Source: Heterodontus francisci (taxonomy: Eukaryota). Taken from it: a stretch of DNA of 64,000 nt. Positions 1,379 to 62,319 of this stretch are shown here, in pieces. Below the pieces are notes generated by a model. That model saw only the letters and a list, made by a program, of their open reading frames with translations, ran no database searches and was not told the origin of the DNA. The stretch is taken from contig NC_090372.1 in NCBI RefSeq assembly GCF_036365525.1, positions 91,935,754-91,999,753 on the forward strand, written 5' to 3'. Within the stretch, counting starts at the first letter, position 1. Each line of letters starts with the position of its first letter. The translations under genes and the position numbers were made by a program.

Positions 1379-1639
1379 AATGGTGGGTGACAATGCTGGA
1401 ACAACAATGCATTTTTCCAGGACACAGCTTTATTTGATATGCAGGTTGGATTTTAACCTGAATTCCTACCTGCACCAAATTTCCAGGTTAGCATTCGTTC
1501 CTTGTCATTTCCACTCTGTGCTCCCACTCTGCATGGTCGCAAAACCTGTCGGCTTTTATACCTCTCTTGAAACTAACTTAAAGGGAACAGATGTCTCTGT
1601 TGAAGGGGCATCAGTAATAAACAGTAACAAGAAAAACTA

Positions 1640-2294
1640 TTGAAAAAACTTAAGTAAATCAAACTACAAATTAAAATGCCATTGCTGGTGGTGATAATGC
1701 ACTCCAGTCCCACCAGTGTCGGAGAGCTCAAGCATTCTAGCAGACACCACATGCTCCCTCTCCAGGTACGGACATAGGCCCGGATGAGAAGCAGACAGTC
1801 TGGCCGGATGACCCCCTCGACTGCTCACAGCCTTGATGTTGATGGTCACCTTGGCCAGGCCCAGGAGCAGTCCCATGAGGAGGTCCCTCGACCGCCTGCT
1901 CCCCTCCGCTTTGGGTGACCAAAAATCAGGAGCATGGGACTAAATTGCAACCAGAACCAGAGGAGCAGCCCCCTCAGATATTAGAACAAGGGCTGCAACC
2001 TCATACTTTCCAAATAAATGTGAAACACGGAATCCTCCAGGCCACAGACATTACAGACAGCCTGGGAGTTTGTGAATTGACTTAATAATCTTTTGCACAG
2101 GACAGCCGTATGCAAAACCCTCCATGTCAAATCCTGGATTTACAAAGGAGGACTCCTTCATGGAGTGCCTCCCACTGGGGGCCTCGCCTCCTCTGGACAG
2201 GAGGTACAGAATGTCATAGCGTGCCGGATGGCCGGCGAGGGCGAGGAGGTGGAGGGTGTACAACAGCAGTCCATACAGGAAACCCCTCCATGAG
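1640..2294 (-). mobile_element. Tx1 (L1-clade) LINE, ORF2 3' end, degraded
   Basis: Minus-strand frames give RGFLYGLLLYTLHLLAL, DLTWRVLHTAVLCKRLLSQFTNSQAVCNVCGLEDSVFHIY (zf-RVT-like CxxC..H), FWLQFSPMLLIFGHP, GLLLGLAKVTIN, LEREHVVS: a typical Tx1 ORF2 C-terminus. Confidence 0.8.
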
Positions 2295-2295
2295 G

Positions 2296-2386
2296 TAGGC
2301 GGTGGCGTAGTGGTATTATCACTGGACTAGTAACCCAGAGACCCAGGGTATTCCTCTGGGGACATGGATTCGAATCCCACCACCGC
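2296..2386 (+). promoter_or_regulatory. tRNA-Thr(AGT)-like head with internal Pol III A and B boxes
   Basis: A box TGGCGTAGTGG (2303-2313); anticodon-like loop CTAGTAA within CTGG..CCAG; extra hairpin CCCAGAG/CTCTGGG (2334-2360); B box GGATTCGAATCCC (2366-2378, 1 mismatch to GGTTCGAATCC); GCGGTGG (2299-2305) complementary to CCACCGC (2380-2386). Confidence 0.8.
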
Positions 2387-2614
2387 AGAAGGTGGAATTT
2401 GAACTTAATAAAAATCTGGAATTAAAACTGGTCTAATGATGGCCATGAAACCATTTTCGATTGTTGTAAAAACCCATCTGGTTCACTAACGTCCTTTAGG
2501 GAAGGAAATCTGCTGTCCTTACCTGGTCTGGCCTACATGTGACTCCAGACCCACAGCAATGTGGTTAACTCTTACATGCCCTCTGAAATGGCTTAGCAAG
2601 CCACTCAGTTGTAA

Positions 2615-5516
2615 CTAACCGCTACAAAGTCTATAAAAAGGAATGAAACCAGACGGACCACCCGGCATCGACCTAGGCACCGGAAACGACAATGGCAAAC
2701 CCAGCCCTGTCGACCCTGCAAAGTCCTCCTTACTAATATCTGGGGGCTTGTGCCAAAGTTGGGAGAGCTGTCCCACAGACTAGTCAAGCAACAGCCTGAC
2801 ATAGTCGGACTCACGGAATCATACCTAACAGACAATGTCCCAGATACTGCCATCACCATCCCCGGGTACGTCCTGTCCCACCGGCAGGACAGACCCAGCA
2901 GAGGTGGTGGCACAGTGGTAAACAGTAGGGAGGGAGTTGCCCTGGGAGTCCTCAACATCGACTCCGAACCTCATGAAGTCTCATGGCATCAGGTCAAATA
3001 TGGGCAAGGTAACCTCCGACTGATTACCACCTACCGCCCTCCCTCAGCTGATGACTCAGTACTCCTCCATGTTGAACAGCACTTGGAGGAAGCACTGAGG
3101 GTGGCAAGGGCACAAAATGTACTCTGGGTGGGGGACTTCAATGTCCATCACCATGAGTGGCTCGGTAGCACCACTACTGACTGAGCTGGCCGAGTCCTAA
3201 AGGACATGGCTGCTAGACTGGGTCTGCGGCAGGTGGTGGGGGAACCAACACGAGGGAACAACATACTCGACCTCGTCCTCACCAATCTGCCTGCCGCAGA
3301 TGCATCTGTCCATGACAGTATTGGTAGGAGTGACCACCGCACAGTCCTTGTGGAGATGAAGTCCCGCCTTCACATTGCGGATACCATCCGTCGTGTTGTG
3401 TGGCACTATCACCGTGCTGAATGGGATAGATTTCGAACGGATCTAGCAATGCAAAACTGGGCATCCATGAGGCGCTGTGGGCCATCAGCAGCAGCAGAAT
3501 TGTACTCAACCACAATCTGTAACCTCATGGCCCGGCATATCCCCCACTCTACCATTACCATCAAGCCAGGAGACCAACCCTGGTTCAATGAAGAGTGCAG
3601 GAGGGCATGCCAGGAGCAGCACCAGGCATACCTCAAAATGAGGTGTCAACCTGGTGAAGCTACAACCCAGGACTACTTGCATGCCAAACTGCATAAGCAG
3701 CATGCTATAGACAGAGCTAAGCGATCCCATAACCAACGGATCAGATCTAAGCTCTGCAGTCCTGCCACATCCAGCCATGAATGGTGGTGGACAATTAAAC
3801 AACTAACTGGAGGAGGTGGCTCCACAAATATCCCCATCCTCAATGATGGGGGAGCCCAGCACATCAGTGCAAAAGATAAGGCTGAAGCATTTGCAACAAT
3901 CTTCAGCCAGAAGTGCCGAGTTGATGATCCATCTCGGCCTCCTCCTGAAGTCCCCAGCATCACAGATGCCAAACTTCAGCCAATTCGATTCACTCCATGT
4001 GATATCAAGAAACGACTGAAGGCTCTGGATACTGCAAAAGCTATGGGGCCTGACAACATTCCGGCAATAGTACTGAAGACCTGTGCTCCAGAACTTGCTG
4101 CGCCCATAGCCAAGCTGTTCCAGTACAGCTACAACACTGGCATCTACCCGGCAATGTGGAAAATTGCCCAGGTATGTCCTGTACACAAAAAGCAGGACAA
4201 ATCGAACCCGGCCAACTACTGCCCCATTAGCCTACTCTCAATTATCAGTAAAGTGATGGAAGGTGTCATCAACAGTGCCATCAAGCGGCACTTGCTTAGC
4301 AACAACCTGCTCAGTGATGCTCAGTTTGGGTCCGCCAGGGCCACTCAGTTCCTGACCTCATTACAGCCTTGGTTCAAACATGGACAAAAGAGCTGAACTC
4401 AAGAGGTGAGGTGAGAGTGACTGCCCTTGACATCAAGGCAGCATTTGACCGAATATGGCATCAAGGAGCCCTAGCAAAACTGAGGTCAATGGGAATCAGG
4501 GGGGAAACCCTCCACTGGCTAGAGTCATACCTGGCGCAAAGGAAGATGGTTGTGGTTGTTGGAGGTCAATCATCTGAGCTCCAGGACATCGCTGCAGGAG
4601 TTCCTCAGGGTAGAGTCCTAGGCCCAACCATCTTCAGCTGCTTCATCAATGACCTTCCTTCAATCATAAGGTCAGAAGCCGGGATGTTCGCTGATGATTG
4701 CACAATGTTCAGCACCATTCGTGACTCCTCAGATACTGAAGCAGTCTGTGTAGAAATGCAGCAAGACCTGGACAATATCCAGGCTTGGGCTGATAAGTGG
4801 CAAGTAACATTCGCGCCACACAAGTGCCAGGCAATGACCATCTCCAACAAGAGAGAATCTAACCATCTCCCCTTGACATTCAACGGCATTACCATCGCTG
4901 AATCCCCCACTATCAACATCCTAGGGGCTACCATTGACCAGAAACTGAACTAGAGTAGTCATATAAATACCGTGGCTACAACAGCAGGTCAGAGGCTAGG
5001 AATCCTGAGGCGTGTAACTCACCTCCTGACTCCCCAAAGCCTGTCCACAATCTACAAGGCACAAGTCAGGAGTGTGATGGAATACTCTCCACTTTGATGG
5101 GTGCAGCTCCAACAACACTCAAGAAGCTCGACACCATCCAGGACAAAGCAGCCCACTTGATTGGCACCCCATCTATAAACATTCACTCCCTCCACCACCG
5201 ACGTACAGTGGCAGCAGTGTGTACCATCCACAAGATGCACCGCAGTAATGCACCAAGGCTCCTTAGACAGCACCTTCCAAACCCGCGACCTCTACCAACT
5301 AGAAGGACAAGGGCAGCAAGTACATGGGAACACCACCACCTGCAAGTTCCCCTCCAAGTCACACACCATCCTGACTTGGAACTATATCGCCGTTCCTTCA
5401 CTGTCGCTGGGTCAAAATCCTGGAACTCCCTTCCTAACAGCACTGTGGGCTTACCTACCCCACATGGACAACGGTTCAAGAAGGCAGCTCCCCACCACCT
5501 TCTCAAGGGCAATTAG
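2615..5516 (+). pseudogene. LINE endonuclease-reverse transcriptase ORF, few disruptions
   Basis: APE motifs VLLTNIWGL, DIVGLTESYL, TTYRPPS, VGDFNVHH, ILDLVLTN, SDHRTV; RT motifs ALDIKAAFDRIWH, GVPQGRVLGP, FADD. Disruptions: TGA at 3182, frameshift near 4331, TAG at 4951, small deletion near 5093. Confidence 0.9.
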
Positions 5517-5579
5517 GGATTGGCAATAAATGCTGGCCTGGCCAGCGACGCCCACATCCCGTGAATTAATTTAAAAAAA

Positions 5580-5632
5580 GAGTGGAATGGCACAGAGGGG
5601 ATTTCCAAGAGAAGGCTCAGGTGGCCCTGTCT
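5580..5632 (-). mobile_element. Continuation of the Tx1 fragment beyond the LINE insertion
   Basis: Minus strand HLSLLLEIPSVPFHS joins in frame to WRGFLYGLLL left of 2294. Confidence 0.7.
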
Positions 5633-6029
5633 TCTTTTACAGAGGCTGGTGACTCATACCCAAGTTGTAACTGCTAAGTCAGCTTCCTGCTACAGTAATT
5701 AACATCTATTCAGGCAACCACTTTCAATTGAGTAACAGATACCAGCCACTGCCAGGCAGTTTCTGTTAAACTAAGCTTTTTACAAGCTTGCAGTTTTAAA
5801 GTTCTAAGTCAGAGTCTGACTGCTAATCTAAATTATAGCTTGAGAAAAACTTACCAGAGATATCCCACCTGCACCAAATTCCCAAGTTAGCACTCATTCC
5901 CCATTGCACTCAGTCCTTGTTGTCTCCACTCTGAATGGCCTACTCCTACTCCTATTTCCTATGTTCCTATGTTCTCACTTTGAAGCACCAAGGTCTCAAA
6001 CGGCAGAAGGAGGAGCAGTATCTTGGTCA

Positions 6030-6255
6030 TCAGTTGTGGCAACAGTCCACAAATTTTTGGACATTTCTATGGGTGTTCTGTTGGCAGAGATAAAAACAAG
6101 GAGAGCTTACATCTTTGGCACCCAAGAGAGGAAGCTCTAGAAGAGGGTAATGCAAGCAGCATGGAGGAATGTGGTTGAGGCAGTCAGTGCCACATCAAAC
6201 ACCTGATCAATGACAGCACAGTGCCAAAAACAACTGAATGACCTCAAAAGTTTTG
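6030..6255 (+). pseudogene. Myb/SANT-like DNA-binding domain relic (Harbinger accessory ORF)
   Basis: HKFLDISMGVLLAEIKTRRAYIFG...AAWRNVVEAVSA...AQCQKQLNDLK with in-frame stops, matching the F..L..V..R..LF..W..VA..QCRK..NDL trihelix pattern. Confidence 0.6.
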
Positions 6256-6289
6256 CTGAAGGAGACTTGGTTTAAACATAGGCAGGAAT

Positions 6290-7303
6290 GGGAACTAAAC
6301 ATTCCTGGCTACATTGTATGAGGGATGGATAAGGGAAAAAGAAAGGGGGATCAAGAATAATATTACAATTCTATAGAGGGGTTATTACTAAATGGCTCAA
6401 AGACTGAATCTATTTTGTTAGAATAAAGGAACACAATAGGAGCGGTTACATTGCTAGGTGTTTATCATAGATCCCCAATAGTGAGAAGGAGATTGAGGGA
6501 GCAAATCAGTAGGCAAATTTCAGAGAAATGTAAAAATAATAGAGCACTAATAGAAGGGCACTTCAATTACCCTAACATAAACTGGGGGAAAGAAGAGTAA
6601 AGGGCAAGGAGGGTGAAGAATTCTTAAAATGGGTACAACAGAACTTCTTTGCCAATTTGTTTCTAGCCCAAAAAGGATTGAAGTAGTGCTGGATCTAGTT
6701 CTGGGGAATGAAGAAGGGCAAGTGGTACATTTCAGTGGGAGGAAATCTGGGTAATAGTGATCATAATATAATTAGGTTTAAAGTAGTTATGGAAAGGGAT
6801 AAAGAAAATAAACGGTGAAAATACCCAAAAGGATTTGGGTATCCAATTTCAGTGATTTGAGAAGGGATCTTGCACAGTGGACTGGAAAATGGTTGGCCAG
6901 GAAAACAGTAAATGAATAATGGCAGACTTTCAAAATGGAGATAGTTTGGGTACAAACCAAGCATATTTCCATAAGGAGGAAAGATGAGACATCCAATGCT
7001 CGAGCTCCGTAGATGACAAAGGAAATAGAGGTTAAAATAAAACAAAAAAAGTTTATGACAAATGTTAGGTGCAGAATACATTCAAAAACCAGGCAGAATA
7101 CAAAGAGTGCAGGGAGAATTTGAAAAAGAATAAGAAGGGAAAAAAATGTGAGAAAAGATTAGTAGAAACATAAAAATCTTTTATAAGCATACAGCAAATC
7201 ATGTCTGACTAACCCAATTGAGTGATTTCATGAAGTAACAGAGAGGGTTGATGAAGGTAGTGCAGTTGATGTATAGATGGAACTTTAAAAGGCAATTTCA
7301 TAA
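6290..7303 (+). mobile_element. Degraded CR1 LINE ORF2, segment 1 (host of the LTR and Penelope insertions)
   Basis: Degenerate endonuclease motifs (GHFNYPNINW, VLDLVLGNEEG, SDHNIIRF); ends at TTTCATAA and resumes at 11845 giving FHNVPH (consensus FDKVPH). Confidence 0.8.
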
Positions 7304-8139
7304 TGTCATGCAGGCCCCCACCTGCCAAGTATGACGCACACATTATTTTGCCACATGAACATTAAAACTTAAAATTGCTGCTGGGAAGAAAAGAAGGCCT
7401 ATCACAATGAATTGCCAGGCCCCTCACCAGAAAGATATTTTTTGCATACTAGCAGACAGTGTTGGAACAAAGGACCCAGTCCCTGCTTCCCCAATACACA
7501 GGACTGGTCAGAGCAGTTTAGTCACATGACTAACTGGCAGTTGGAATTTTTTGAATTTGAACTTGCCAAAGAGTTTTAAAACTGAGAAAGCTGATTGCTC
7601 CTGGACTGAAAACACCTCACGCCTGTCTGCTCCCATCTCTTTCTCACGGAACTGAAGACCCATTGAAGACACATGAACCCCAAGAGAGAAAAGTCTCCCA
7701 CAGTGAACAAGGTTTAAGAAGAATACTGGGCCCCAATGAAAAGCAAGATTAGCTACAAGCAAGGGCTACAGTAAGCTTGAAGCACAGTAACAAGAAACTC
7801 TTCAAATATTGCCTCAAACCTCTCTATTTTATTTTTCTTCTGCTCTTTTCTGTCTCTATTTGTACGTGCATATCGCGTATGCATGCTAGCGTGGGGCGCA
7901 GCATGTATCCGTAAGCATTGGCCGAACTAGAGATTAAGTTTAAGTTCAATAAAATTTCACATTTCTTCTTTAAACCTAAGAAAGCCTGTTTATGCTCATT
8001 TATTTGCCTTATATTTGAAAATGGTGAACAAGGATTCACCAAAGGGGGAGCTCAAAACACAATGTGTTTAAAATTAAACCCTGTTACAATAAGACCAGGT
8101 GAAGGTAGTAAAAGACCCCCAGACACCTTTCTCACCTGG
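7304..8139 (+). repeat. 5' LTR
   Basis: Starts TGTCATG; 7419-8139 matches 11112-11836; lacks the last ~8 nt present in the 3' LTR; followed by TGGGTACTAGCATCCG, a possible degenerate tRNA-Pro PBS. Confidence 0.85.
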
Positions 8140-8287
8140 AATTTTGGGTACTAGCATCCGTAATTGTACCCACAGATAAACAAGAGAAATTGGAAGTGGG
8201 AAGCCAAATTGTTCCCAATCAAAAAACAAAAAAAAAGAACAAGATTAATGCAGGTTTTCTTGTGGTTATGTGTGATTGAAAACTAAC

Positions 8288-10365
8288 ATGTCTGCAACTG
8301 AAGCGAGTAGCTCTCCAAGCCGGGGTGAAGTAACTTGGGATAAGTTAAAAGCACTGTCTATGAAGGATTTGAGGAAAATGGCTGAGCAGTGAGGGATCAT
8401 TATACGTGGCAAGGCTAGGAAGTCTGAAATATTAAGGCAAGTGGCCAACAACTTTCCCCTTGAATCTGAAGAAACCAAAACGGGGTTAGAAGCAGAATCT
8501 GACAGGGTATTGCTAGCAAAGATACAATTGAAACAGAGGAAACCTGAATTTGAGGAAAGAGAGAGGGACAAAGAGAGAGGCTTCCAGAAGGTACGTGAAG
8601 AAAAAGAAAGACAGGACAAGGAATGAGAGAGAGAGGAGAGAGAGAAAGAATATTCCAGAAAGAATCCAGAGAGAGAGAGCTGAAATGGCTTGAGTTAACT
8701 AGGAGGTGACAAAGTAAGCCCAGTGAAAGCATGGCCATTTTGGAGGAGCATAACTCAGGGCTGGGTACAAAATTGCTAAAAATCGCTCAATTAATTCCAA
8801 AATTCAATGAGGAAGATGTGGAAGCGTTTTTTGTGTTTTTTGAGAAATTGGCAAGGCCACTAAAATGGCCAGCTGAGACCTGGTCTCTTTTAATACAAAG
8901 CAAACTAACTGGAACAGCCCATGAGGTTTATTCCTTGTTTCCAGACGAGAGTTCATCAAATTATGAACTGACCAAAAATGCTATCCTCGGGGCATATGAA
9001 TTAGTACCCGAAGCCTACTGCCTCAAAAAGCAAGCTAATCAAACTTATCTGGAGTTTTAAAGAAGCAAGCAGTTGGTTTTTGACCAGTGGCTGAGGGCTC
9101 ATAGAATACAGCTCAGCTATGAGACTCTCAGAGAAGTAATGCTGTTAGAGGAATTTAAAGGCAGTCCTGGGATAGAAAGGAAAGCAGGAGACACAGGGGG
9201 CCCTCCTCCAGCCAAAAAGGAAGATGCTATGAGCAAGAGTGATTCCTGGAGACCTGTGTGCCTCCATCGTAATAAAGCAGGGCATTTAAAAGCTGGCTGC
9301 TGGAAACTAAAGGGAAAACCGGTGGGGTTAATCTGGACACACCCGCTCAGTGAAGACACAGAACAAGGTGCGGCCTTAACTGCAGTAAGAGTGAGACCCA
9401 GAAAGCTTATTACAGCCAGTGCAGGAAAAGTTAATAGGATTCCTGAAGGTTATCAGGGTTTTTTGTCTGAAGGGAAAGTAACCCCATACCCCTCAAGTGG
9501 TGCAAGCAAGCCCATAGTGATTCTCAGGGACACAGGGGCCACCAGATCCCTTTTACTGGGAACGGTCTGACCTTTCCCACAAAGAGTGCAGTAAACACCA
9601 GAATGATAGTGAATGGTATTGGAGGGCAGTGTATGCCTGTACCAGTACACTGTGTGTATCTGGAGTGCGACCTAGTTTCTGGATTGGTGACCATAGGGAT
9701 TGTCCCTAGTTTGCCTGTGGACGGGTTGACCTGCTCCTAGGTAATGATCTGGCAGGGGTGAAGGTGGTAACCCCCCCCCCAGTAGTGAAAGAAAGACCAC
9801 AGGAGATCAGAGAGACAGGGCGGTGGCAGAAGACGGACCCCTGCACTTTCCATTAATGTGTAGTGGATCAGGCCATCAAACTAGCTCCCCCAGAGGAGAC
9901 TGCATTGGCATTGCAGGCAAATGACCATGAGGTCTACCTGCCTGAGACTTTCTTCGGAAAGTTAGGAGACCCAGGGAATGAATCAAATGGATTTTCCCTA
10001 GCTGAAGCTCAGCGAGCTGACCCAGTATTGTGAGAGTTAGCACAGGCTGCCCAGTCTGACAGTGAAGCAGAGGGAGTCCCTGGTTGCTACTATTTAAAGA
10101 AGGAGGTACTGATGAGGAAATGGAGTTCTCCACACAGCCCTGAGAGCAAGAAGTGGACATTAGTTCACCAGTTAGTGGTGCCACAGAGGTACTGGACAGA
10201 AATATTAAGAAGTGCCCATGAGACTACAGTGGCTGTACATGTCAGTATAGAAAGGACCAAAGCCCACATAAGACAGCGGTTTGATTGACCAAAGCTCCAC
10301 AAAGATGTGGTGGAGTACTGCAGGAGTTGCCACGTGTGCCTGGTTGAGGGAAACCCCAACCTACA
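8288..10365 (+). pseudogene. Gag (SCAN-like capsid, CCHC knuckle), protease and integrase HHCC domain, disrupted
   Basis: LIPKFNEEDVEAFFVFFEKLA..KWPAETWSLLIQSKLTG..NYELTKNAILGAYELVPEAY; CLHRNKAGHLKAGC; ILRDTGATRSLL; then HETTVAVH...VVEYCRSCHVC near 10215-10340, i.e. integrase directly after protease. Confidence 0.85.
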
Positions 10366-11111
10366 GTGAAACCTGCACCCCTAAGTCCTGTGTTAGGAGG
10401 ACCCTCCAACAGAGGGCTGGTGAATTATAAGGGTTACCCGCTGAGAACAAAAGGGGACAGGCAGGCACAAGGCTGGCAAAAGTTTAGAAAGAGAAGGGGA
10501 AAAAGTGATCAAGAGGGCAGGTTAAAGGAAGTCCAGGAGGAAGCCTGGATGAAAACCCCTACTGTCTGGTCAGCCAACTTCGAACAATGTGAACCATTAG
10601 ACCGCACATCCTCCTACTTTAATGCAGACACTAGAAGCACCCCACCAGAGTTGCTAACAGCATTTACAGGAACCTGCAGAGACAAAGAGAGATCTCTAGG
10701 AGGCACAGAAACCATGAGGGTGATGTCTCACTTAGACAAAGTGCCACAGGAGAGTGCTGCCAAGTCTGCACAAATACCTACACGCAGGGATGTCCCAGAG
10801 AGCAAAGGAGAGATGAAATGGAATCCTCCCCCACAGTCAGAGAAAAAGGGAACCACCCATCCCCTGAAGTCAAAAGCCTTTGCATCTCAAAGACCCTAAG
10901 CAGTCATGGAAATGGGCAAACTGAAGAAAAACTTTCTCAAAGAAACACAGGTTTATTGGGATGCCAAAAATGGGGAAATTAAAGCTGCACTGGCACCCAG
11001 AAAAGACAATTTTAGTAAGTTCCAAGATTGATGAATGAATGGAAATGAATGAGAGAAATGCATGTTTTTTCTTTCTGTATCCTATATTTCTCTCAAACCT
11101 TGTAATGAAAT

Positions 11112-12846: not shown

Positions 12847-15500
12847 TCATGCTCTGAAATTATTGAACTCAATGTTCAGTTGAACAAGCTGTAGTGTCCC
12901 TAATCAGTAAATGGGATGCTGTTCCTCGAGCTTGCGTTGATGTTTACTGGAAAACTGCAGCAATCCCAGGACAGAGATATGAGCATGAGAGCAGGGGGGG
13001 GGGTGTGTTGAAATGGCAAGCAACTGGAAGCTCAGGGTCCTGCTTGCGGACTGAGTGGAGGTGTTCTGCAAAGCGGTCACCCAGTCTGCTTTTGGTATCC
13101 CCAATCTAGAGGAGACCACATTGTGAGCAGCGAATACACTATACTACATTGAAAGAAGTACAAGTAAATCGCTGCTTCACCTGAAAGGAGTGTTTGGGGC
13201 CTTGGATAGTGAGGAGAGAGGAGGTAAATGGGCAGGTATTACACCTCCTGCGATTGCAGGGGAAGGTGCTGTGGGAAGGGGACGAGGTGGTGGGGGTAAT
13301 GGAGGAGTGGACCAGGGTGTCGCGGAGGGAACGATCCCTTCGGAATGCTGACAGGGGAAGGGAGGGGAAGATGTGTTTGGTAGTGGCATCATGCTGGAGC
13401 TGGCGGAAATGGCGGAGGATGATCCTTTGGATATGGAGGCTGATGGGGTGGAAAGTGAGGACAAGGGGAACCCTGTCACGGTTCTGGGAGGGAGGGGAAG
13501 GGGTGAGGGTAGAGGTGCGGGAAATGGGCCGGACACGGTTGAGGGCCCTGTCAACCACAGTGGGGGGGAATCCTTGGTTGAGGAAAAAGGAAGACATATC
13601 AGAAGTGCTGTCATGGAAGGTAGCATCATCAGAGCAGATGCGTTGGAGATGGAGAAACTGGGAGAATGGAATGGAGTCCTTACAGGAGGCAGGGTGTGAA
13701 GAAGTGTAGTTGAGGTAGCTGTGGGAGTTGGTGGGCTTATAATGGATATTAGTAGACAGCCTATGCCCAGAGATGGAGACAGAGAAGTCGAGGAAGGGAA
13801 GGGAAGTGTCGGAGATGGACCATGTAAAGGTGAGAGAAGGGTGGAAATTAGAAGCAAAGTTGATAAAGTTTTCCAGTTTGGAGTGGGAGCAGGAAACGGC
13901 ACCGATACAGTCATCAATTTACGGAAAAAGAGTTGGGGGAGGGGGCCTGAGTAGGCCTGGAACAAGGAATGTTTGACATATCCCACAAAAAGACAGGCAT
14001 AACTAGGACCCATGCGGGTACCCATCGCAACACGTTTTACTTGAAGGAAGTGAGTGGAGTTGAAGGAGAAGTTGTTCAATGTGAGAACTTCAGCCAGGCG
14101 GAGGAGGGTGGTGGTGGATGGGGACTGGTTGGGCCTCTGTTCAAGGAAGAAGCGGAAAGCCCTCAAACCATCCTGGTGGGGGATGGAGGTGTAGAGAGAT
14201 TGAACGTCCAAAGTGAAGAGGAGGCGGTTGGGGCCAGGAAACTAGAAATTGTCAAAATGACTTAGGGCGTCAGAAGAGTCACAGATGTAGGTGGGAAGAG
14301 ACTGGACCAGCGGAGAAAAGATGGAATCAAGATAGGAAAAAATAAGTTCAGTGGGGCAGGAGTAGGCTGACACAATGGGTCTGCTGGAACAGTCCTGTTT
14401 GTGGATTTTGGGAAGGAGGTAGAAGCGGGCTGTCCGGGATTGCAGGACTATGAGGTTGGAAGCTGTAGAGGGAAGATCTCCAGAGGAGATGAGGTCAGTG
14501 ACAGTCCTGTGGACAGTAGCTTGATGTTCGGTGGTGGGGTCATGGTCCAGGGAGAGGTAGGAAGAAGTGTCTGAGAGTTGGCACTGAGCCTCTGCAAGGT
14601 AGAAGTCGGTACGTCATACAACAGCATCACCCTTGTCTGCAGGTGTGATAACAATGTCAGGGTTAGACCTGAGAGAACGGAGTGCCTCAAGTTCAGGTTA
14701 GAGTGAGTGAGGGGGGCAGAGAAATTTAGATGACCAACGTCTCGCCGACAGTTTTCAATGAAAAGATCAAGAGCGGGTAAGAGGTCAGGGGAGGGGTCCA
14801 GGTAGAGGGGGAATACTGGAGGCGGATGAATGGGTCTGCAGATCGGGGGGAGGACTCCTGGTCAAAGAAGTGAGCCCGGAGGCGGAGGCGACGGAAGAAG
14901 AGCTCAACGTCATGCCGAGCGCGAAATTCATTGAGGTGGGGGCGGAAGGGGATAAAACTGAGTCCTTTGCTGAGTACAGAATGTTCAGCATCAGAGAGGG
15001 GGAGGTCAGAGGGTATAGTGAATATACGGCAAGGGGTCAGATCAGAAGGGGTGGAGTCAGAGGGCAGTGAAGGGGAAGAAGGATCTGGAGGGGCAGTAGT
15101 CCCCATCAGCTGCTGGAGCTTGTGTTCCTTGAAAGGAAGAGAAAACGTTTTTTGTTAATGCATCGGATGAGACGAAGGATGAAATGAAACTGCGGAGTAG
15201 AACAGCTTTGAGATAAGGTGAGGCGGTGCTTCTGGAGAGAGAGGTTCAGTGTGTACATCTAGTGGTGCATAGCACTGAGTGTGGATCTCAGGATGCGGCG
15301 AGAACAGCAGTCCGAGGAACGTTGTATTTCTCGGAGATACTTGTAACCCTGGGTGGATTCAAAACATGGTGGGTGAAACAGCAGTTGGAATCCACGTGGA
15401 ATAAGTCGGAGCCAGAGACAGTCACTGAGGAAGGAGATGTGGCTGTGAAAATGGGTTTTGGTAGACACTTTATCAAACACTAGGAGGAAAATAGAAAGCA
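12847..15500 (-). pseudogene. Penelope RT-GIY-YIG ORF, 5'-truncated and frameshifted
   Basis: VLSKGLSFIP, DVQSLYTSIPH, QVKRVAMGTRMGPSYACLFVG, frameshifted YIDD region near 13910-13925, RVPLVLTFHP, CNRRRCNTC, FTCTSFNVV..CIRCSQC (GIY-YIG); stop TGA at 12847-12849. Confidence 0.85.
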
Positions 15501-21925: not shown

Positions 21926-24864
21926 CTAAAACCTTCTGCACTTCCGGGGTCCGTATCCCTCTATTCCCATCCTATTCATGTATTTGTCAAGATGCCTCTT
22001 AAACATCGCTATCGTAGCTGCTTCCACCACCTCCCCCGGCAGCAAGTTCCAGGCACTCACCACCCTCTGTGTAAAAAACTTGCCTCTCACATCTCCTCTA
22101 AACATTGCCCCTCGCACCTTAAACCTATGTCCCCTAGTAACTGACTCTTCCACCCAGGGAAAAAGCTTCTGACTATCCACTCTGTCCATGCCACTCATAA
22201 CTTTGTAAACTTCTATCAGGTCACCCCTCCACCTCTGTCGTTCCAGTGAAAACAATCCGAGTTTATACAACCTCTCCTCATAGCTAATACCTCCAGACCA
22301 AGCAACATCCTGGTAAACCTCTTCTGTACCCTCTCCAAAGCCTCCACATCCTTCTGGTGGTGTGGCGACCAGAATTGTACACAATATTCCAAGTGTGGCC
22401 TAACTAAGGTTCTGTACAGCTGCAGTATGACTTGCCTATTTTTATACTCTATGCCCTGACCAATGAAGGCAAGCATGCCGTATGCCTTCTTGACTACCTT
22501 ATCCACCTGCATTGCCACTTTCAGTGATCTGTGGACCTGTATGCCTAGATCTCTCTGCCTGTCGATACTCCTAAGGGTTCTGCCATTTACTGGATACTTC
22601 CCACCTGTATTAGACCTTCCAAAATGCATTACCTCACATTTGTCCGGATTAAACTCCATCTGCCATTTCTCCACCCAAGTCTCCAACCGATCTATATCCT
22701 GCTGTATCCTTTGACAATCCTTGTCACTATCTGCAACTCCACCAACCTTTGTGTCATCCGCAAACTTACTAATCAGACCAGCTACATTTTCCTTCAAATC
22801 ATTTATATATACTACAAACAGCAAAGGTCCCAGCACTGTTCCCTGCGGACCACCACTAGTCATAGCCCTCCATTCAGAAAAGCACCCTTCCACTGCTACC
22901 CTCTGTCTTCTATGACCGAGCCAGTTCTGTATCCACCTTGCCAGCTCCCCTCTGATCCCGTGTGACTTCACCTTTTGTACCAGTCTGCCATGAGGGAACT
23001 TATCAAAGGCTTTACTGAAGTCCATGTAGACAACATCCACTGCCCTTCCTTCATCAATCATCTTCGTCACTTCCTCAAAAAACTTGATTAAGTTAGTGAG
23101 ACACGACTTCCCCTTCACAAAACCATGCTGCCTCTCGCTAATAAGTCCATTTGTTTCTAAATGGGAGTAAATCCTATCCCAAGGAACCCTCTCCAATAAT
23201 TTCCCTACCACTGATGTAAGGCTCACCGGCCTGTAATTTCCTGGATTATCCTTGCTATCCTTCTTAAACAAAGGAACAACATTGGCTATTCTCCAGTCCT
23301 CTGGGACCTCACCTGTAGCCAATGAGGATACAAAGATTTCTGTCAAGGCCGCAGCAATTTCCTCCCTTGCCTCCTTCAGTATTCTGGGGTAGATCCCATC
23401 AGGCCCTGGGGACTTATCTACCTTAATGTTTTTCAAGACGCCCAACAGCTCCTCCTTTTTGATAATGACATGACCCAGACTATCTACACTCCCTTCCCTA
23501 GACTCATCATCCACCAAGTCCTTCTCTTTGGTGACTACTGATGCAAAGTACTCATTTACTACCTCACCCATTTCCTCTGGCTCCATGCATAGATTCCCTC
23601 CTCTGTCCTTGAGTGGCCCAACCCTTTCCCTGGCTACCCTCGTGCTCTTTATATACGTATAAAAAGCCTTGGGATTCTCCTTAATCTTGTTTGCCAATGA
23701 CTTTTCATGACCCCTTTTAGCCCTCCTGACTCCTTGCTTAAGTTCCTTCCAACTTTCTTTATATTCCTCAAGGGCTTTGGCTGTTCCCAGCCTTCTAGCC
23801 CTTATGTATGCTTCCTTTTTCTTTTTGTCGAGGCTCACAATATCCCACGTTATCCAAGGTTCCCGAAACTTGCCAAACTTATCCTTCTTCCTCACAGGAA
23901 CATGCCGGTCCTGGATTCTAACCATCTGATGTTTGAAAGACTCCCACATGTCAGATGTTGATTTACCCTCAAACAGCCGCCCCCAATCTAAATTCTTCTG
24001 TTCCTGCCTCATATTGTTATAATTAGCCTTCCCCCAATTTAGCACCTTCACCCGAGGACTACTCTTATCCTTATCCACAAGTACCTTAAAACTTACGGAA
24101 TTATGGTCACTGTTCCCGAAATGCTCCCCTACTGAAACTTCGACCACCTGGCCGGGCTCATTCCCCAATACCAGGTCCAGTACGGCCCCATCCCTAATTG
24201 GATTATCTACATATTGTTTCAAGAAGGCTTCCTGGATGCTCCTTACAAATTCTGCCCCATCTAAGCCCCTAGCACTAAGTGAGTCCCAGTCAATATAGGG
24301 GAAGTTAAAATCACCCACCACAACAACCTTGTTGCTTTTACGTCTTTCCAAAATCTGTCTACATATCTGCTCCTCTATCTCCCGCTGGCTGTTGGGAGGC
24401 CTGTAGTAAGCCCCCAACATCATGACTGCACCCTTCCTATTCCTGAGCTCCACCCATATTGCCTCGCTGCATGATCCCTCTGAGGTGTCCTCCCGCAGTA
24501 CAGCTGTGATATTCTCCGTAACTAGTAATGCAACACCCCCACCCCTTTTACATCCCCCTCTATCCCGCCTGAAGCATCTAAATCCCAGAACGTTTAGCTG
24601 CCAATCCTGTCCTTCCCTCAACCAAGTCTTGTTAATAGCAACAACATCATAGTTCCAAGTACTAATCCAAGCTCTAAGTTCATCTGCCTTACCTGTTATA
24701 CTTCTCGCATTGAAACAAATGCACTTCAGACCACCAGTCCCGATGTGCTCAGCAACATCTCCCTGCCTGCTCTTCCTCTCAGTCTTACTGGCCTTATTCA
24801 CTAGTTCCCCCTCAGTTATATCACTTGCTGACCTACTGCTCTGGTTCCCACCCCCCTGCCACAC
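21926..24864 (-). pseudogene. CR1 ORF2 (APE + RT), one frameshift near 22290
   Basis: CFNARSI, YYRPPNS, VVGDFNFP, LDLVLGN, SDHNSV, YMDFSKAFDK, PQGTVLGP, FADDTK; C-terminus continues in ORF 21926-22384 (RGDLIEVYK, WNLLP). Confidence 0.92.
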
Positions 24865-25788
24865 TAGTTTAAATCCTCCCGAGTGACGCTAGCAAACCTC
24901 GCAGCCAGGATATTAGTGCCCCTCCAGTTTAGATGCAACCCGTCCTTCTTGTACAGGTCCCACCTGTCCCAGAAGAGATCCCAATGATCCAGATATCTGA
25001 AACCCTCCCTCCTACACCAGCTGTTTAGCCATGTGTTTAGCTGCACTATCTTCCTATTTCTAGCCTCACTGGCACGTGGCACAGGGAGTAATCCCGAGAT
25101 TACAACCCTAGAGGTCCTGTTTTTTTAACTTACTACCCTAACTCCTTGAACTTCCCCTGCAGGACCTCGTCACTCTTCCTGCCTATGTCTTTAGTACCAA
25201 TGTGTACCACAACCTCTGGCTGTTCACCCTCCCCCTTCAGAATGCCCCCTGTCTGTTCAGAGACATCTTTGACACTGGCACCAGGGAGGCAACATACCAT
25301 CCTGGAGTCTCTTTCACGTCCACAGAAGCGCCTATCTGTGCCCCTGACTATAGAGTTCCCTATAACTATTGCTCTTCTGCGTTTGTCCCTCCCTGCTGAA
25401 CAACACAGCCAGCCGTGGTGCCACTGCTCTGGCTGCTGCTGTTTTCCCCTGATAGGTCATCCCCCCCAACAGTATCTATAACGGTATACTTGTTAGAGAG
25501 GGGGATAGCCACAGGGGATTCCTGCACTGACTGCCTGTCCCTTTTAGTGGTCACCCATCTATCTGCCTGTACCTTGGGTGTAACCACGTCTCTAAAACTC
25601 CTGTCTATGATGCTTTCTGCCACCTGCATGCTCCTCAGTGCATCCAATTGCTGCTCCAACCGATCCATGCGGTCTGTGAGGAGCTGCAACTGGGTACACT
25701 TCCTGCACATGTAGTTGTCTGGAACGTTGGAAGCGTCACGGACCTCCCACATCTCACAGGTGAAGCACGTTACCCCTCTGACTGACAT
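24864..25788 (-). pseudogene. CR1 ORF1 (CxxC..CxxC, leucine zipper, SGNH/GDSL esterase), frameshifted
   Basis: MSVRGVTCFTCEMW..YMCRKCTQLQLLTDRMDRLEQQL; IVIGNSIVRG; VVVHIGTKDIG; DGLHLNWRG; stop TAG overlaps the ORF2 GTG (TAGTG). Confidence 0.85.
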
Positions 25789-47545: not shown

Positions 47546-48956
47546 AGCAAAATACTGCGGATGCTGGAGCTCTGAAATGAGAACAGAAAGTGCCGGAAAT
47601 ACTCAGCCGGTCTGGCAGCATCTGTGTAGAGAGAAACAGAATTAACATTTCAGGTCTGTGACCCTTCATCAGAACTGGCAAAAGTTAGAAATGTAACAGT
47701 CTTTGAGCAACTGAAAGGGGGAGGGGGGGGAAAGAACAAGAAGGAAGGACTGCGATAGGACAGAGGGGAGAGAGATTAAATGACAGATGTCATGGAACAG
47801 AATACAAATGGCGTGCTAAATAGAGTGCTAATGGCAGAATAATGAACAGCTCTGTATGAAAGCAAAAACATGAAAAATAAGTTTAAGACCAGCAAATGGT
47901 TAAAAAAAATTAAATATATATAAACAAAAAATAATGGGGCTCATGGTCGACTGAAATTATTGAACTCAATATTGAGACCCGAAGGTTGTAGACTGCCTAA
48001 TTGGAAGATGAGGTGCTGTTCCTCTAGCTTACACTGATGTGGAATATTGCAGCAGACCGAGGACAGAAATGTGGGCATTTGAACAAGGTGCTGAATTAAA
48101 ACGGCAAGCAACCAGAAGCTCGAGATCATGCTTGCAGACTGAGCGAAGGTGTTCTACAAAGTGGTCACCCAATCTGCGTTTGGTCTCCCCAATGTAGAGA
48201 AGACCGCATTGTGAGCAGTGGATACAGTATACTAAGTTGAAAGAAGTAAAAGTAAATCACTGCTTCATCTGGAAGGAGTGTTTGGGGCCTTGGATGGTGA
48301 GAAGAGAGGAGGTAAAAGGGCAGATATTACACCTCCTGTGATTGCATGGGAAGGTGCTGTGGGAAAGGCTTGAGGTGTCAGGGGTGGCAGAGTGGACCAG
48401 GGTGTCGCAGAGGGAACGGTCCCTTCGGAATGCTGGCGGGAGGGGAGGGGAAGATGTATTTGGTGGTGGCATCACACTGGAGGTGGCGGAAATGGCAGAG
48501 GATGATCCTTTGGATGTGGAGGCTGGTGGGGTGGAAAGTAAGGACAAGGGGAACCCTGTCGCGGTTCTGGGAGGGAGGGGAAGGGTTGAGGGCAGAAGTG
48601 CGGGAAATGGGTCGGACACGGTCGAGGGTCCCGTCAACCTGTGTGGGAAAATCCTCGGTTGAGGAAAAAGGACATAACAGATGCACTGTTCTGGAAGGTT
48701 GCATCACCAGAACAGATGCGTCGGAGATGGAGAAACTGGGAGAATGGATTGGAGTTCTTACAGGCGGCAGGCTGTGAGGAGTGTAGTCAAGGTAGCTGTG
48801 GGAGTTGGTGGGCTTATAATAAATACGAGTGAACAGACTATCCCCAGATATGGAGGCAGAGAAGTCGAGGAGGGAAGGGAGGTGTCAGAGAGGAACTGTA
48901 GGAAGATGAGAGAAGGGTGGAAATTGGAAGCAAAGTTGATGACATTTTCCAGTTCC
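47546..48956 (-). mobile_element. Penelope-like 3' part in the last STK31 intron
   Basis: RVPLVLTFHP, CNHRRCNIC, GLNIEFNNF; 3' repeat with hammerhead motif at 47640-47676 (GAAAT variant). Confidence 0.87.
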
Positions 48957-54530: not shown

Positions 54531-54773
54531 TGGAATAGGTACTTAACTCTTCACAAAAGATTTATTTCTTTGCTCCGTTAAGTGAAGTTTATACGTTTTT
54601 CAATCTATAGCAACACACAACAATTCCTTACTGCTGAAATTTATATTAACTTGTTTATAGTGACAAATGGAAGTCAAATTGGTCAGAAATTGAACTTGTT
54701 GCCACAACAAAAATCCAAAATTGGCCATTTCTGAATTGACTCCAGGAAAACAAGTTTCACCAGATGTAGTTCT

Positions 54774-54975
54774 TTTTAATTCATTCACGAGATATGGGCA
54801 CCACTGGCAATGTCAGCATTTATTGTCGGTCCCTAATTGCCCTTCGAAGGTGGTGGTGAGCTGAACCGCTCCAGTCTATGTGGTGTAAGTACACCCAAAG
54901 TGTTGTTAGGGAGGGATATCCAGGATTTTGATCTAGCGACAGTGAAGCTGTGGCAATATATTTCCAAGTTGAGAG
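54774..54975 (-). mobile_element. 3' end of the same LINE family as 2295-5579
   Basis: Reverse complement of ~5375-5575 (AAGGGCAATTAGGGA..AATAAATGCTG..GCCCATATC). Confidence 0.8.
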
Positions 54976-57162: not shown

Positions 57163-60066
57163 AATCTGAGAGCCGTGCCCCCATTGTCAGCTGCAGCTTT
57201 CCTTCTGGGCAGGTGGCTCCCCAACTGTCCTTGGCAGCCTTGCCCCCTGCTCTTATGCACCTGTGATGCCAGGGCAGGGAGCGCCGACCCTTGTTCAATG
57301 CCCGTGTCCTGAGTGCCCACTCTCCCAGCCATCTGCACAACGCCAAGGTCACCCCGTTACTAACAGCTGAATCCCCCTTTGCCCTGTTGACCCATTTATG
57401 TGGCCAGGGAGTTGCTGCCTCCCCTCAAATGATCTGTTTCTGAAGGCATGAGCATCCTGTGCTCCCCTTTAAAATTTCAAGTTCAAACACCAACAAGCTC
57501 TTAATGAGCTTTTCAACAGCTTTCAACAAGGAGTGGGATTCCTGTCCCAACCTGGTGATTATTGCCAGTTTCGAGATCAGGGTCTTGAAACTGACATGCT
57601 GCCTGCCGCCAGTATTTTCAGGGCCCCCCCCGGCCTCCATTCCAGACATCGGGGGGCCCTGCAAATTCAGCCCCAAGTGTCATCTTCAAGTAAAGGTTGG
57701 CTAGAGGACAGGGATAATCAGACCAGGGCCTGCAAAGATAATTCAGTCCACAATTTAAAGTCATGCATTCTCGCCTTGTTCATAAAATCATGTTATAAAT
57801 TTCTTTGTCCACATTTATACTTTAAGCAACCTAAGTAAACTGGTCACACTGTAATTATAGTGATCTACTAGTGGTGACACTGCAGGACTTCCACATGTTG
57901 TAATTAAATAACTGGTGTAATTAAGGTAAACAAGTTTGCATAGACAATTTCTATTCTAAAGGTAGAAACAGGAATCTATACTTAAAAACTTTTTGCAAGA
58001 CATGAAACGTTATTTATTATACACAAACACAATGATGTCTGTTGCATTGCTCATAATTAAGAGACTTCACTGGTTTGTAATAAATAGGGGTATTCATGTA
58101 ATTTAAGGGATGACATGAGGGCCACTGATCTATAGTAACTAAATAAATCAATCCTTTCAAAAATTAAATTGTATACTGGATTTTTACTGGTGCTTTGTGG
58201 ACTGAACTTCACAACTCTGACCATTACTTAATGAAAATCAAGTAAGTAGCCTTTGTTTTTGATCTTTTTTTTTAGCCCTGTATTTATTTTTTAAAGCAGA
58301 TAATACATATCAAGATAGTAAGCAAGATGCCCCAATTACAGCTGTATATCTGGTATTTAGCAGGGAGGAGGAAATGGAGTTCAGTTGTCCTTGGGAGTCC
58401 AGGACTTTGGTTGCACTGGAGATGCTCCTGGGATTTGGTAGAATTGGGGTGGGGGTCTTCAAGCTTAACAGTACTGCAGTAGAATCTGGAATTTTATGCC
58501 AAATCTAAGAAATTCTTGTGCTGCTAGTGTGGAGGGCAAACCTGAGATTTGACACAACGGGGAGTGGAATGTGATATTTCACTCACTGGTGGATTCCTGA
58601 GGAACAAATTTCATATGTATGGCATTGGAAACTGATTGCCTCCTGGGGGTGTGCGCTGCACTACCAGCCACTTGGGTGTCACCCATGTGACGCACCATCT
58701 TGAGAAGCAACTGAACTGGTCCTATCTTGACATCACACAGCTATAGTGGCTGATATGGCATCCATTTTCCAAATTTGGACCACACATTCAACAAATTTGT
58801 ACGTGATTCAACAAAGATCAAGTATTGAGCTTCAAAACGGGCCCAGCACTAGTGTTATTTAAAGGGCCAGGCACCCAACTTGAAGGTAAAGCAATTTTGA
58901 ATAATATTTGTTATTGCAAACTGTCTGAAAGTGCTCTGGTGTGTTTTTGGAGGTGTTTTGGTAAGTTCCTGGATTTGGCAGGGAGTGTTGCTGCATCCTC
59001 ATTGGAAAAGCAGAGGATTAGGTGACTTGTACACACAAAGGCTGTAACAGGTATGGGGCAGCAGGGCCAGTGCCTCTGGGTCTGCAGCACGACATGGAAA
59101 TGGAGCAGAGGCTGCCGAGAGAGCAAGCTTTGTGCAATGAGAGTGCTAGTGGCTGCAAGTATCAGATCAAGTGATGAGGCCTCTTCATCAGTGCAGTGCT
59201 GTTGCTTTCTCTCCTCCTGCTGGGGCTACTGTGGCTAGGCACCTGAAGACTTGTGCTCCAAAGTTAGCTGTGCCTGTGGCCAATCTGCTCAAATACAGCT
59301 ACAATGCTGGTACCTTACCTGACAATATGGAAAAACTGCACAGGTATGTTGCATCCACTAAAAGCAGGACAAATCCAATTCAGCCAAATACCACCCAATC
59401 AGCCAACTCTCAAGCGTCAGTGAAGTGATGAAAGATGCCGTCAACAGTGCTACCAAGCCGCACTTACTCACCAACATCCTGCTCACTGATGCTCAGTTTG
59501 GGTTTCACTAGGATAACTCAGCTCCAGACCTCATTATAGCCTTGGTCCAAACATAGATAAATGAGCTAAATTCCAGAGGTTAGGTAATAGTGACTGCCCT
59601 TGACATCAAGACTGAATGTGTCATCAAGGAGCACTCTCCACTGGTTATAGTCATACCTAGCACAAAAGGAAGACAGTTGTGGCTGTTGGAGGCCAATCAT
59701 CTCAATCCTAGGACATCGCTACAGGAGTTCCTCAGGGCTAGGCCCAAGCTTCTTCAGCTGCTTCATTAATGACTGTCCCTTCATTATAAGGCCAGAAGTA
59801 GGGATGTTCGCTAAAGATTGTAGAATTCAGTTCCATTCTGAATTCCTTGGATAACGAAGCAGTTCGTGCCCGAATGCAGCAAGACCCGAACAAGAGGCAA
59901 GTAGCATTCGCACTACACATTCTAGACAATGACCTTCTCCATCATGTGAGAGTCTAACCACTTCCTCTTGACATTCAACAGCATTACCATTGCCTAATTC
60001 CCTCACCATCAACATCTTGGGGATAACCGTTGACAAGAAACTCAACGGGACCAGTCACATATATAA

Positions 60067-61365: not shown

Positions 61366-61818
61366 TATAATGCGGCTACAACAGCAGGTCAGAGGCTGGT
61401 TATTCTGTGACGAGTGACTCACCTCCTGACTCCCCAAATTCTTTCCACCATATAAAAGGCACAAGTCAGGACTGTGATGGAATACTATCCACTTGCCTGG
61501 ATGAGTGCAGCTCCAACATCAGAAGAACAATGCAAAGCAGTCTGCTTAATCGGCACCCCATCTACACTTTAAGCATTCACTCCCTCCAGCACTGGAGCAC
61601 AGTGGCTGCAGGGAATACCATCGATAATACACAATGCAGTAAGCCTTGTCAAGTCTTCAACAGCACCATTCAAGCCCATGGCCTCTATCACCTAGAAGGA
61701 CGAAGGCAACAAGTGCATGGGAACACCACCAACTGCAAGTTTCCCTCTAAGTCATAGATCATCCTGACTTGAAAACACATCGCCGTTCCCCCATCGCTGG
61801 GTCAAAATCCTAGAACTC

Positions 61819-62169: not shown

Positions 62170-62319
62170 AACTCCTACCTAAGAGCACTGTGAGAATACC
62201 TTCACCACATGGATTGTAGTTGTTCAAGAAGATGGCTCACCATCAATTTCTTAAGGGCAATTAGAGATGGACATTAACCTTGCCAACAGTGCCCATATCC
62301 CATGAACAAATAAAAAAAG

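Follow-up and report, generated by a model that had tools for sequence, protein, structure and literature searches.

The shark Heterodontus francisci carries, within the 64,000-nucleotide stretch of DNA analysed here (the window, from a genome of 6.0 Gb), a tRNA-like head, equipped with an A and a B box, that runs into a reverse transcriptase gene, which raises the question of what such a unit is and which polymerase transcribes it. LINEs are held to depend on Pol II and SINEs on Pol III, with Pol III products regarded as short and devoid of coding capacity (PMC5786205, PMC10886601), and Pol III is deemed to lack the processivity that long elements need (PMC10886601).

The unit is a full-length, inactivated LINE copy, assigned below to elasmobranch Zenon-1, that occupies positions 2293-5579 of the window on the forward strand, as do all its parts. 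Its head (2295-2387) is tRNA-derived without being a foldable tRNA gene, and ARAGORN called no tRNA on it. Both boxes of the initial annotation were found, the A box at 2303-2313, recognised by what we take to be its consensus, and the B box at 2367-2375, the first G of which is an A here and a G in the family. The attribution of the head to tRNA-Thr(AGT) was not confirmed: although its loop is Thr-like, alignment to the tRNA-Leu and tRNA-Thr of the source genome, the two types compared, placed it nearer to Leu(AAG/TAG) (70-79, z 7-9.6) than to Thr(AGT) (52-65, z 4.4-7.5). Downstream lies a conserved body (2388-2611), common to LINE and SINE forms and predicted to be a translation element, whose A-rich spacer holds an AATAAA at 2407. 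It is followed by a single APE-RT frame (2615-5516; endonuclease from about 2723, reverse transcriptase at about 4320-4930), in which Pfam recognised Exo_endo_phos and RVT_1, and a conserved ATG at 2643-2645 lies out of frame with it, 80 nt 5' of the endonuclease start. The element closes with an AATAAA polyadenylation signal (5525-5530), about 40 nt from its end, and with three Ts and seven As (5570-5579); among copies the T-run ahead of the A tail varies from 0 to 9. The body of about 230 nt and the A tail ending at 5579 were as first described, and ORF1 was missing both from this copy and from those sampled without use of the head. What had been reported as one APE-RT ORF is indeed a single frame by Pfam, but here it is broken by two stops (3182 and 4951) and three deletions (4331, 5095 and 5469); because of these lesions, the altered G in the B box and a TTTT at 2454 that is private to it, the copy is dead.

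Rfam, applied to positions 1500-6500, gave a sub-threshold lncRNA match on the neighbouring LINE flank and none on head or body. Folding of the body yielded an MFE z of just -2.2, and no covariation support for a body structure was obtained. An identification of the body as the Deu domain of SacSINE1 was discarded because the published Deu alignment differs by eye. One copy elsewhere (L059) sits in sequence resembling the published Deu domain, and DeuSINEs therefore appear to be a separate family in the source genome.

The element interrupts a LINE fragment on the reverse strand that we take to be of Tx1 type, the 3' part of which lies at 1603-2292 and the 5' part at 5580-5622. A flanking GAG had been read as a target-site duplication that, counted once, rejoins the interrupted frame perfectly, but eight of 11 uninterrupted relatives carry one codon more than this; another has the extra codon plus a base, two are deleted at the site, and in none is the stretch that short. 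In the closest relative these flanks are separated by 2 nt. Judged by these sequences, the insertion was blunt or nearly so, and the whole unit of head, body, ORF and tail fills this single site despite the missing duplication. In 30 copies the flanking duplications measured 0-6 nt, at least 3 nt in 12 of them against 5.7 expected by chance, a slight excess, and none reached 7 nt. The element does start at the head, as annotated, but the exact start at 2295 was not confirmed: since the family has a G at -1 in 36 of 39 copies and at -2 in 31 of 39, its 5' end lies somewhere in 2293-2295. At four loci (L056, L062, L098 and L123) young copies directly abut older copies of the same family, which may reflect an insertion preference.

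To what extent head and ORF belong together was apparent from the other copies. A query over head, body and ORF start returned 9,728 candidates, and the junction was covered, at 96-100%, in 40 of the 40 matches scored; the copies fetched with it all begin at element positions 1-5 (39/39), and 35 reach the tail. Because a head-spanning query favours headed copies, three samples were picked without the head. Among 30 loci (40 matches) obtained with the ORF alone, 23 reach the 5' end of the head and seven start within the body; the first 30 by position out of 709 exact pre-ORF motifs gave the same proportions (23 and seven, one of the latter with an insertion-displaced head); and 15 of the 20 examined among 49 matches to an outside homologue reach the 5' end of the head, the other five being truncated. 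No alternative 5' region or ORF1 common to copies was present in these three samples, nor did any sampled copy extend upstream of the head with an ORF1 or another promoter. In the first two of these samples, then, full-length copies begin at the head and the rest are 5'-truncated, and even copies just 83-91% alike share this start. Body and ORF are also bridged in contigs from two further organisms, and at least half of the sampled words were present in five organisms. The junction is thus family-wide rather than peculiar to this locus, being present in sharks and a ray, and head, body, ORF and tail move together as the single unit that the initial annotation had supposed. These results show that the element is one copy of an old and abundant shark-and-ray retroelement family (locus L047 was left out as a duplicate of L046). 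Old fragments of the same family, 72-78% alike, lie in the window at 59243-60065, 61374-61818 and 62170-62319 on the forward strand and at 54770-54969 on the reverse. The closest outside protein homologues were P0001 (42%) and P0002 (39%); a metagenome search gave a single weak match (35%), and no relatives were found in viral contigs. About 215 residues of a public shark aldo-keto reductase gene model (P0004) are 85% identical to the ORF, a segment that is either a gene-prediction error or an exonised copy.

Sequence identity places the family as elasmobranch Zenon-1, a LINE already catalogued in 2026 (PMC13343379, Genome Biol Evol). Motifs of the window match the Zenon-1 rows in its supplement, and all seven shark and ray Zenon consensuses given there open with the same head, boxes and body, whereas two hagfish and one coelacanth Zenon have no head and do contain runs of four or more Ts (first 400 nt, compared by eye; the coelacanth 5' end is of low confidence). 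Zenon elements are described as lacking ORF1 and ending in poly(A), with the elasmobranch members absent from repeat databases (PMC13343379), and our family has APE and RT in a single ORF, no ORF1 and a poly(A) tail. The placement in the Zenon clade by RT phylogeny is taken from that work, our own basis being identity to the consensuses. The words "tRNA" and "promoter" are absent from its text, and "tRNA" from its supplement.

The same head, body and tail recur in short elements, of which at least 6,629 copies share an exact body-to-tail junction. Most of the 25 SINE forms examined consist of head, body and the last 77 nt, and they are 66-95% alike to the window copy; rarer ones break at 339, 378 or 392 and rejoin within the ORF's terminal part, and are therefore deletion products of the LINE. 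A tRNA-derived head with A and B boxes is a SINE2 trait that the LINE shares, but shortness and lack of coding capacity, also typical of SINE2, belong solely to these forms of about 395 nt, the LINE being 3.3 kb long with a frame of 972 codons in copy L069, which retains head, open frame and tail. Four of 49 protein matches were without an internal stop. Selection was visible in a set of 42 headed copies of full length, which diverge by 1.7-4.5% from the majority letters of the alignment columns: for non-CpG variants present in at least four of the 42, pN/pS was 0.15 (17 non-synonymous, 33 synonymous), against 0.75 for singletons. The head-bearing source elements therefore relied on their own protein; as far as substitution patterns can tell, they kept the ORF under purifying selection, and the family is autonomous in origin. 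Of the earlier proposal, an autonomous SINE-LINE hybrid that took over the promoter of a SINE, the autonomy was supported, but capture by the LINE is only one possible direction, several of the SINE forms having arisen from it by deletion.

Evidence on the polymerase came from the terminators, the shortest of which for Pol III are TTTT and TVTTT (PMC8466645). On the sense strand of the 42 copies, outside the tail, TTTT occurred at 0.14 runs per copy and at no common site, as compared with 15 A4, 12 C4 and 8 G4 sites common to the set, and TVTTT occurred 0.55 times per copy versus 10.2 on the antisense strand. The sense strand is T-poor (20%). With protein and codon usage held fixed, the four unbroken copies had 4-7 TTT against 14-18 expected (z -3.2 to -3.6), TTT ranking 6-7 of 64 for depletion behind four lowest triplets that all contain CpG. 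Absence of TTTT alone gave P 0.005-0.1 in L069, according to the null, and 0.09-0.2 in L142 (one run), and is a modest signal for a single sequence. Since the 42 copies are one lineage and not independent, the depletion counts as one observation with controls. In the control frames TTT was not depleted and 3-9 T4 runs were present; these were the CR1-type ORF2 of the window (22216-24888, reverse strand, open over 890 codons, with 28% identity to the ORF of Zenon), a frame of the window that we take to be Penelope-like and three Tx1 ORF2 (L184 and L185 were dropped as non-ORF2 frames, and L187 had no frame above 900 nt). The window holds RT fragments at 13139-14241 and 48378-48884 on the reverse strand, presumably Penelope-like, and, on the forward strand at about 7300-10900, broken gag-pol-like frames after an LTR-like stretch, which we take to be Gypsy-like. 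Older Zenon-1 copies have 1.2 T4 runs per 3.26 kb, equal to simulated neutral decay. Zenon-1_Hmel, which has no head, shows at least seven T-runs of length four or more over roughly 2.5 kb when read by eye (PMC6740152, supplement).

The commonest letters of 97 young heads and of 13 old ones disagree at 22 columns; the A box holds none of these and the B box one, of CpG type, and columns 164-273 show no such difference between old and young copies. An AATAAA is present at 33 of 35 3' ends, followed by 0-9 Ts and 0-12 As; four or more Ts precede the A tail in 11 of them, those with the shorter A runs, and fewer than four in the other 24. This order of AATAAA, T-run and oligo(A) is like that of T+ SINEs, and growth of the T-run may be due to post-insertion slippage. 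The pairing of AATAAA with poly(A) would be just as expected of Pol II, poly(A) being general to Zenons (PMC13343379). Contigs from RNA runs span the element from head to tail, one of them bridging body and ORF; such contigs show no start, strand or polymerase.

We believe, on three lines of indirect evidence, that Zenon-1 is probably transcribed end to end by Pol III, and that this transcript would be the sole source of translated RNA. TFIIIC would bind the A and B boxes, and Pol III would initiate on purines some 10 nt 5' of the A box, read through 3.3 kb because terminators have been selected against, and stop at the terminal T-run or downstream, the RNA then being polyadenylated as in T+ SINEs. 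The alternative that survives best, although improbable in our judgement, is a Pol II element in which head and body form an internal Pol II promoter or the head is just a processing signal (for example for RNase P) that cuts a precise 5' end out of a longer Pol II RNA. It agrees with the view that LINEs are transcribed by Pol II (PMC5786205, PMC10886601), with AATAAA and poly(A) and with the partly kept stems of the head, but it does not predict the strand-specific loss of TTTT and TVTTT, which is absent from the headless Zenon and from the other LINEs compared. Nor is it favoured by a head that is no foldable tRNA and whose boxes are fixed while other positions change, or by the AATAAA lying 113 nt from the element start in 36 of the 42 copies, which suits Pol II poorly.

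A Pol III transcript would also have to be translated. Upstream of the endonuclease there are ten ATGs, each common to at least half of the copies, and wherever one of them is in frame, a stop in the same frame separates it from the endonuclease domain in most copies; no start codon was found, and the ATG at 2643 is present, out of frame, in the Zenon-1 of all five species. The in-frame TAG at 2594-2596 is replaced by four different codons in ten of the 42 copies (L041, L045, L050, L057, L058, L064, L144, L146, L151 and L152), which opens the frame from upstream ATGs; four of these ten come from a sample picked for long frames, and about ten other copies carry a second stop besides the TAG. 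Cap-scanning thus seems unlikely under either polymerase, and the routes that remain are internal entry, read-through or frameshift, which are general options of translation (PMC3894237). On the Pol III reading, the RNA, without an m7G cap and with ten upstream AUGs, would be translated through internal entry, with the conserved body as guide, and the protein would use target-primed reverse transcription to copy the RNA that encodes it, besides mobilising the deletion-derived SINE forms.

The burden of translating an uncapped RNA would be removed if labour were split, Pol III making the template for reverse transcription and Pol II transcripts, from host read-through or internal activity, supplying the protein largely in trans. 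This would account for T-run avoidance, and the 3'-heavy RNA-run contigs resemble, weakly, fragments of read-through LINEs; nevertheless, a pN/pS of 0.15 on shared variants indicates that selection acted, in the lineages that were copied, on the protein each encoded, and a Pol II RNA would be no easier to translate by cap-scanning, given the ten upstream ATGs, so that we regard it as still less probable than the Pol II element. A one-off chimera, in which a SINE had nested on a 5'-truncated LINE or been joined to it by template switching at this locus only, would draw on the abundance of SINE forms that share its head and body (6,629 exact junctions) but is refuted by the same junction in 40 of 40 scored matches, 709 exact pre-ORF motifs, seven published consensuses and contigs of two other organisms.

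To the complete proposal we would give about even chances: Zenon-1 would be an autonomous vertebrate LINE, older than the split of sharks and rays, transcribed by Pol III, polyadenylated in the T+ style, translated without a cap through an IRES-like element in the body and giving rise to SINEs by deletion. If so, a long-lived, high-copy family would break the rule that pairs LINEs with Pol II and SINEs with Pol III, and would provide a natural Pol III mRNA, with a cap-independent translation signal implied in the 230-nt body. A SINE would here owe its head and body immediately to the 5' end of a LINE that is still living, a direct case for the origin of conserved SINE bodies, which PMC5786205 leaves as a question. 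Being compact, with a single ORF and a Pol III promoter, such an element would be of interest as a tool, and unbroken natural copies exist.

Among known systems, the nearest are the published elasmobranch Zenon-1 consensuses (CarCar, HypSab, RhiTyp, ScyCan and SquAca Zenon-1/2/3), which have the same head, body and pre-ORF region (400 nt), poly(A) and no ORF1, the five Zenon-1 among them being 3,244-3,314 nt long; the head, the missing terminators and the SINE forms are not described in the available part of PMC13343379. The lepidopteran Zenon and its deletion derivative Persaeus likewise combine a single ORF, poly(A) and non-autonomous forms made by internal deletion, but Persaeus is reported without tRNA homology or a Pol III promoter, and Zenon-1_Hmel has an in-frame ATG and internal runs of four or more Ts, unlike the shark element (PMC6740152, in the portion available). 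RTE-1_DAn and relatives (Repbase, PMC5786205) are also LINEs said to hold tRNA-like sequence; they belong to the RTE clade and are likened here by description only. The T+ SINEs (B2, Dip, Ves; PMC8466645, PMC10572872) share the tRNA head, AATAAA and the A tail, and their full or rudimentary T terminator may have its counterpart in the T-run of the shark element; their T-run is longer where the A tail is shorter (PMC8466645), as in the shark element, from which they differ in being non-coding and below 600 nt, with all 12 known families in placentals. The DeuSINEs SacSINE1 and LmeSINE1 (PMC5499810) also include a shark tRNA-headed SINE with a conserved body, but their Deu domain is unmatched by the shark body (by eye) and their partner LINE is L2-2_CM. 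TRIMp3 elements (Cassandra, Helenus and Ajax; PMC10886601) are likewise non-SINE retroelements with a Pol III promoter derived from a small RNA, but they are non-autonomous LTR elements of 0.3-1.3 kb that encode no protein. In the open literature covered, neither an autonomous LINE transcribed by Pol III nor this head was found described, and a prior note in subscription papers or Repbase is possible. Compared with these systems, what is new are the missing sense-strand terminators, the T+-like 3' end and the purifying selection on the ORF of head-bearing sources, in a family whose head goes unremarked in PMC13343379.
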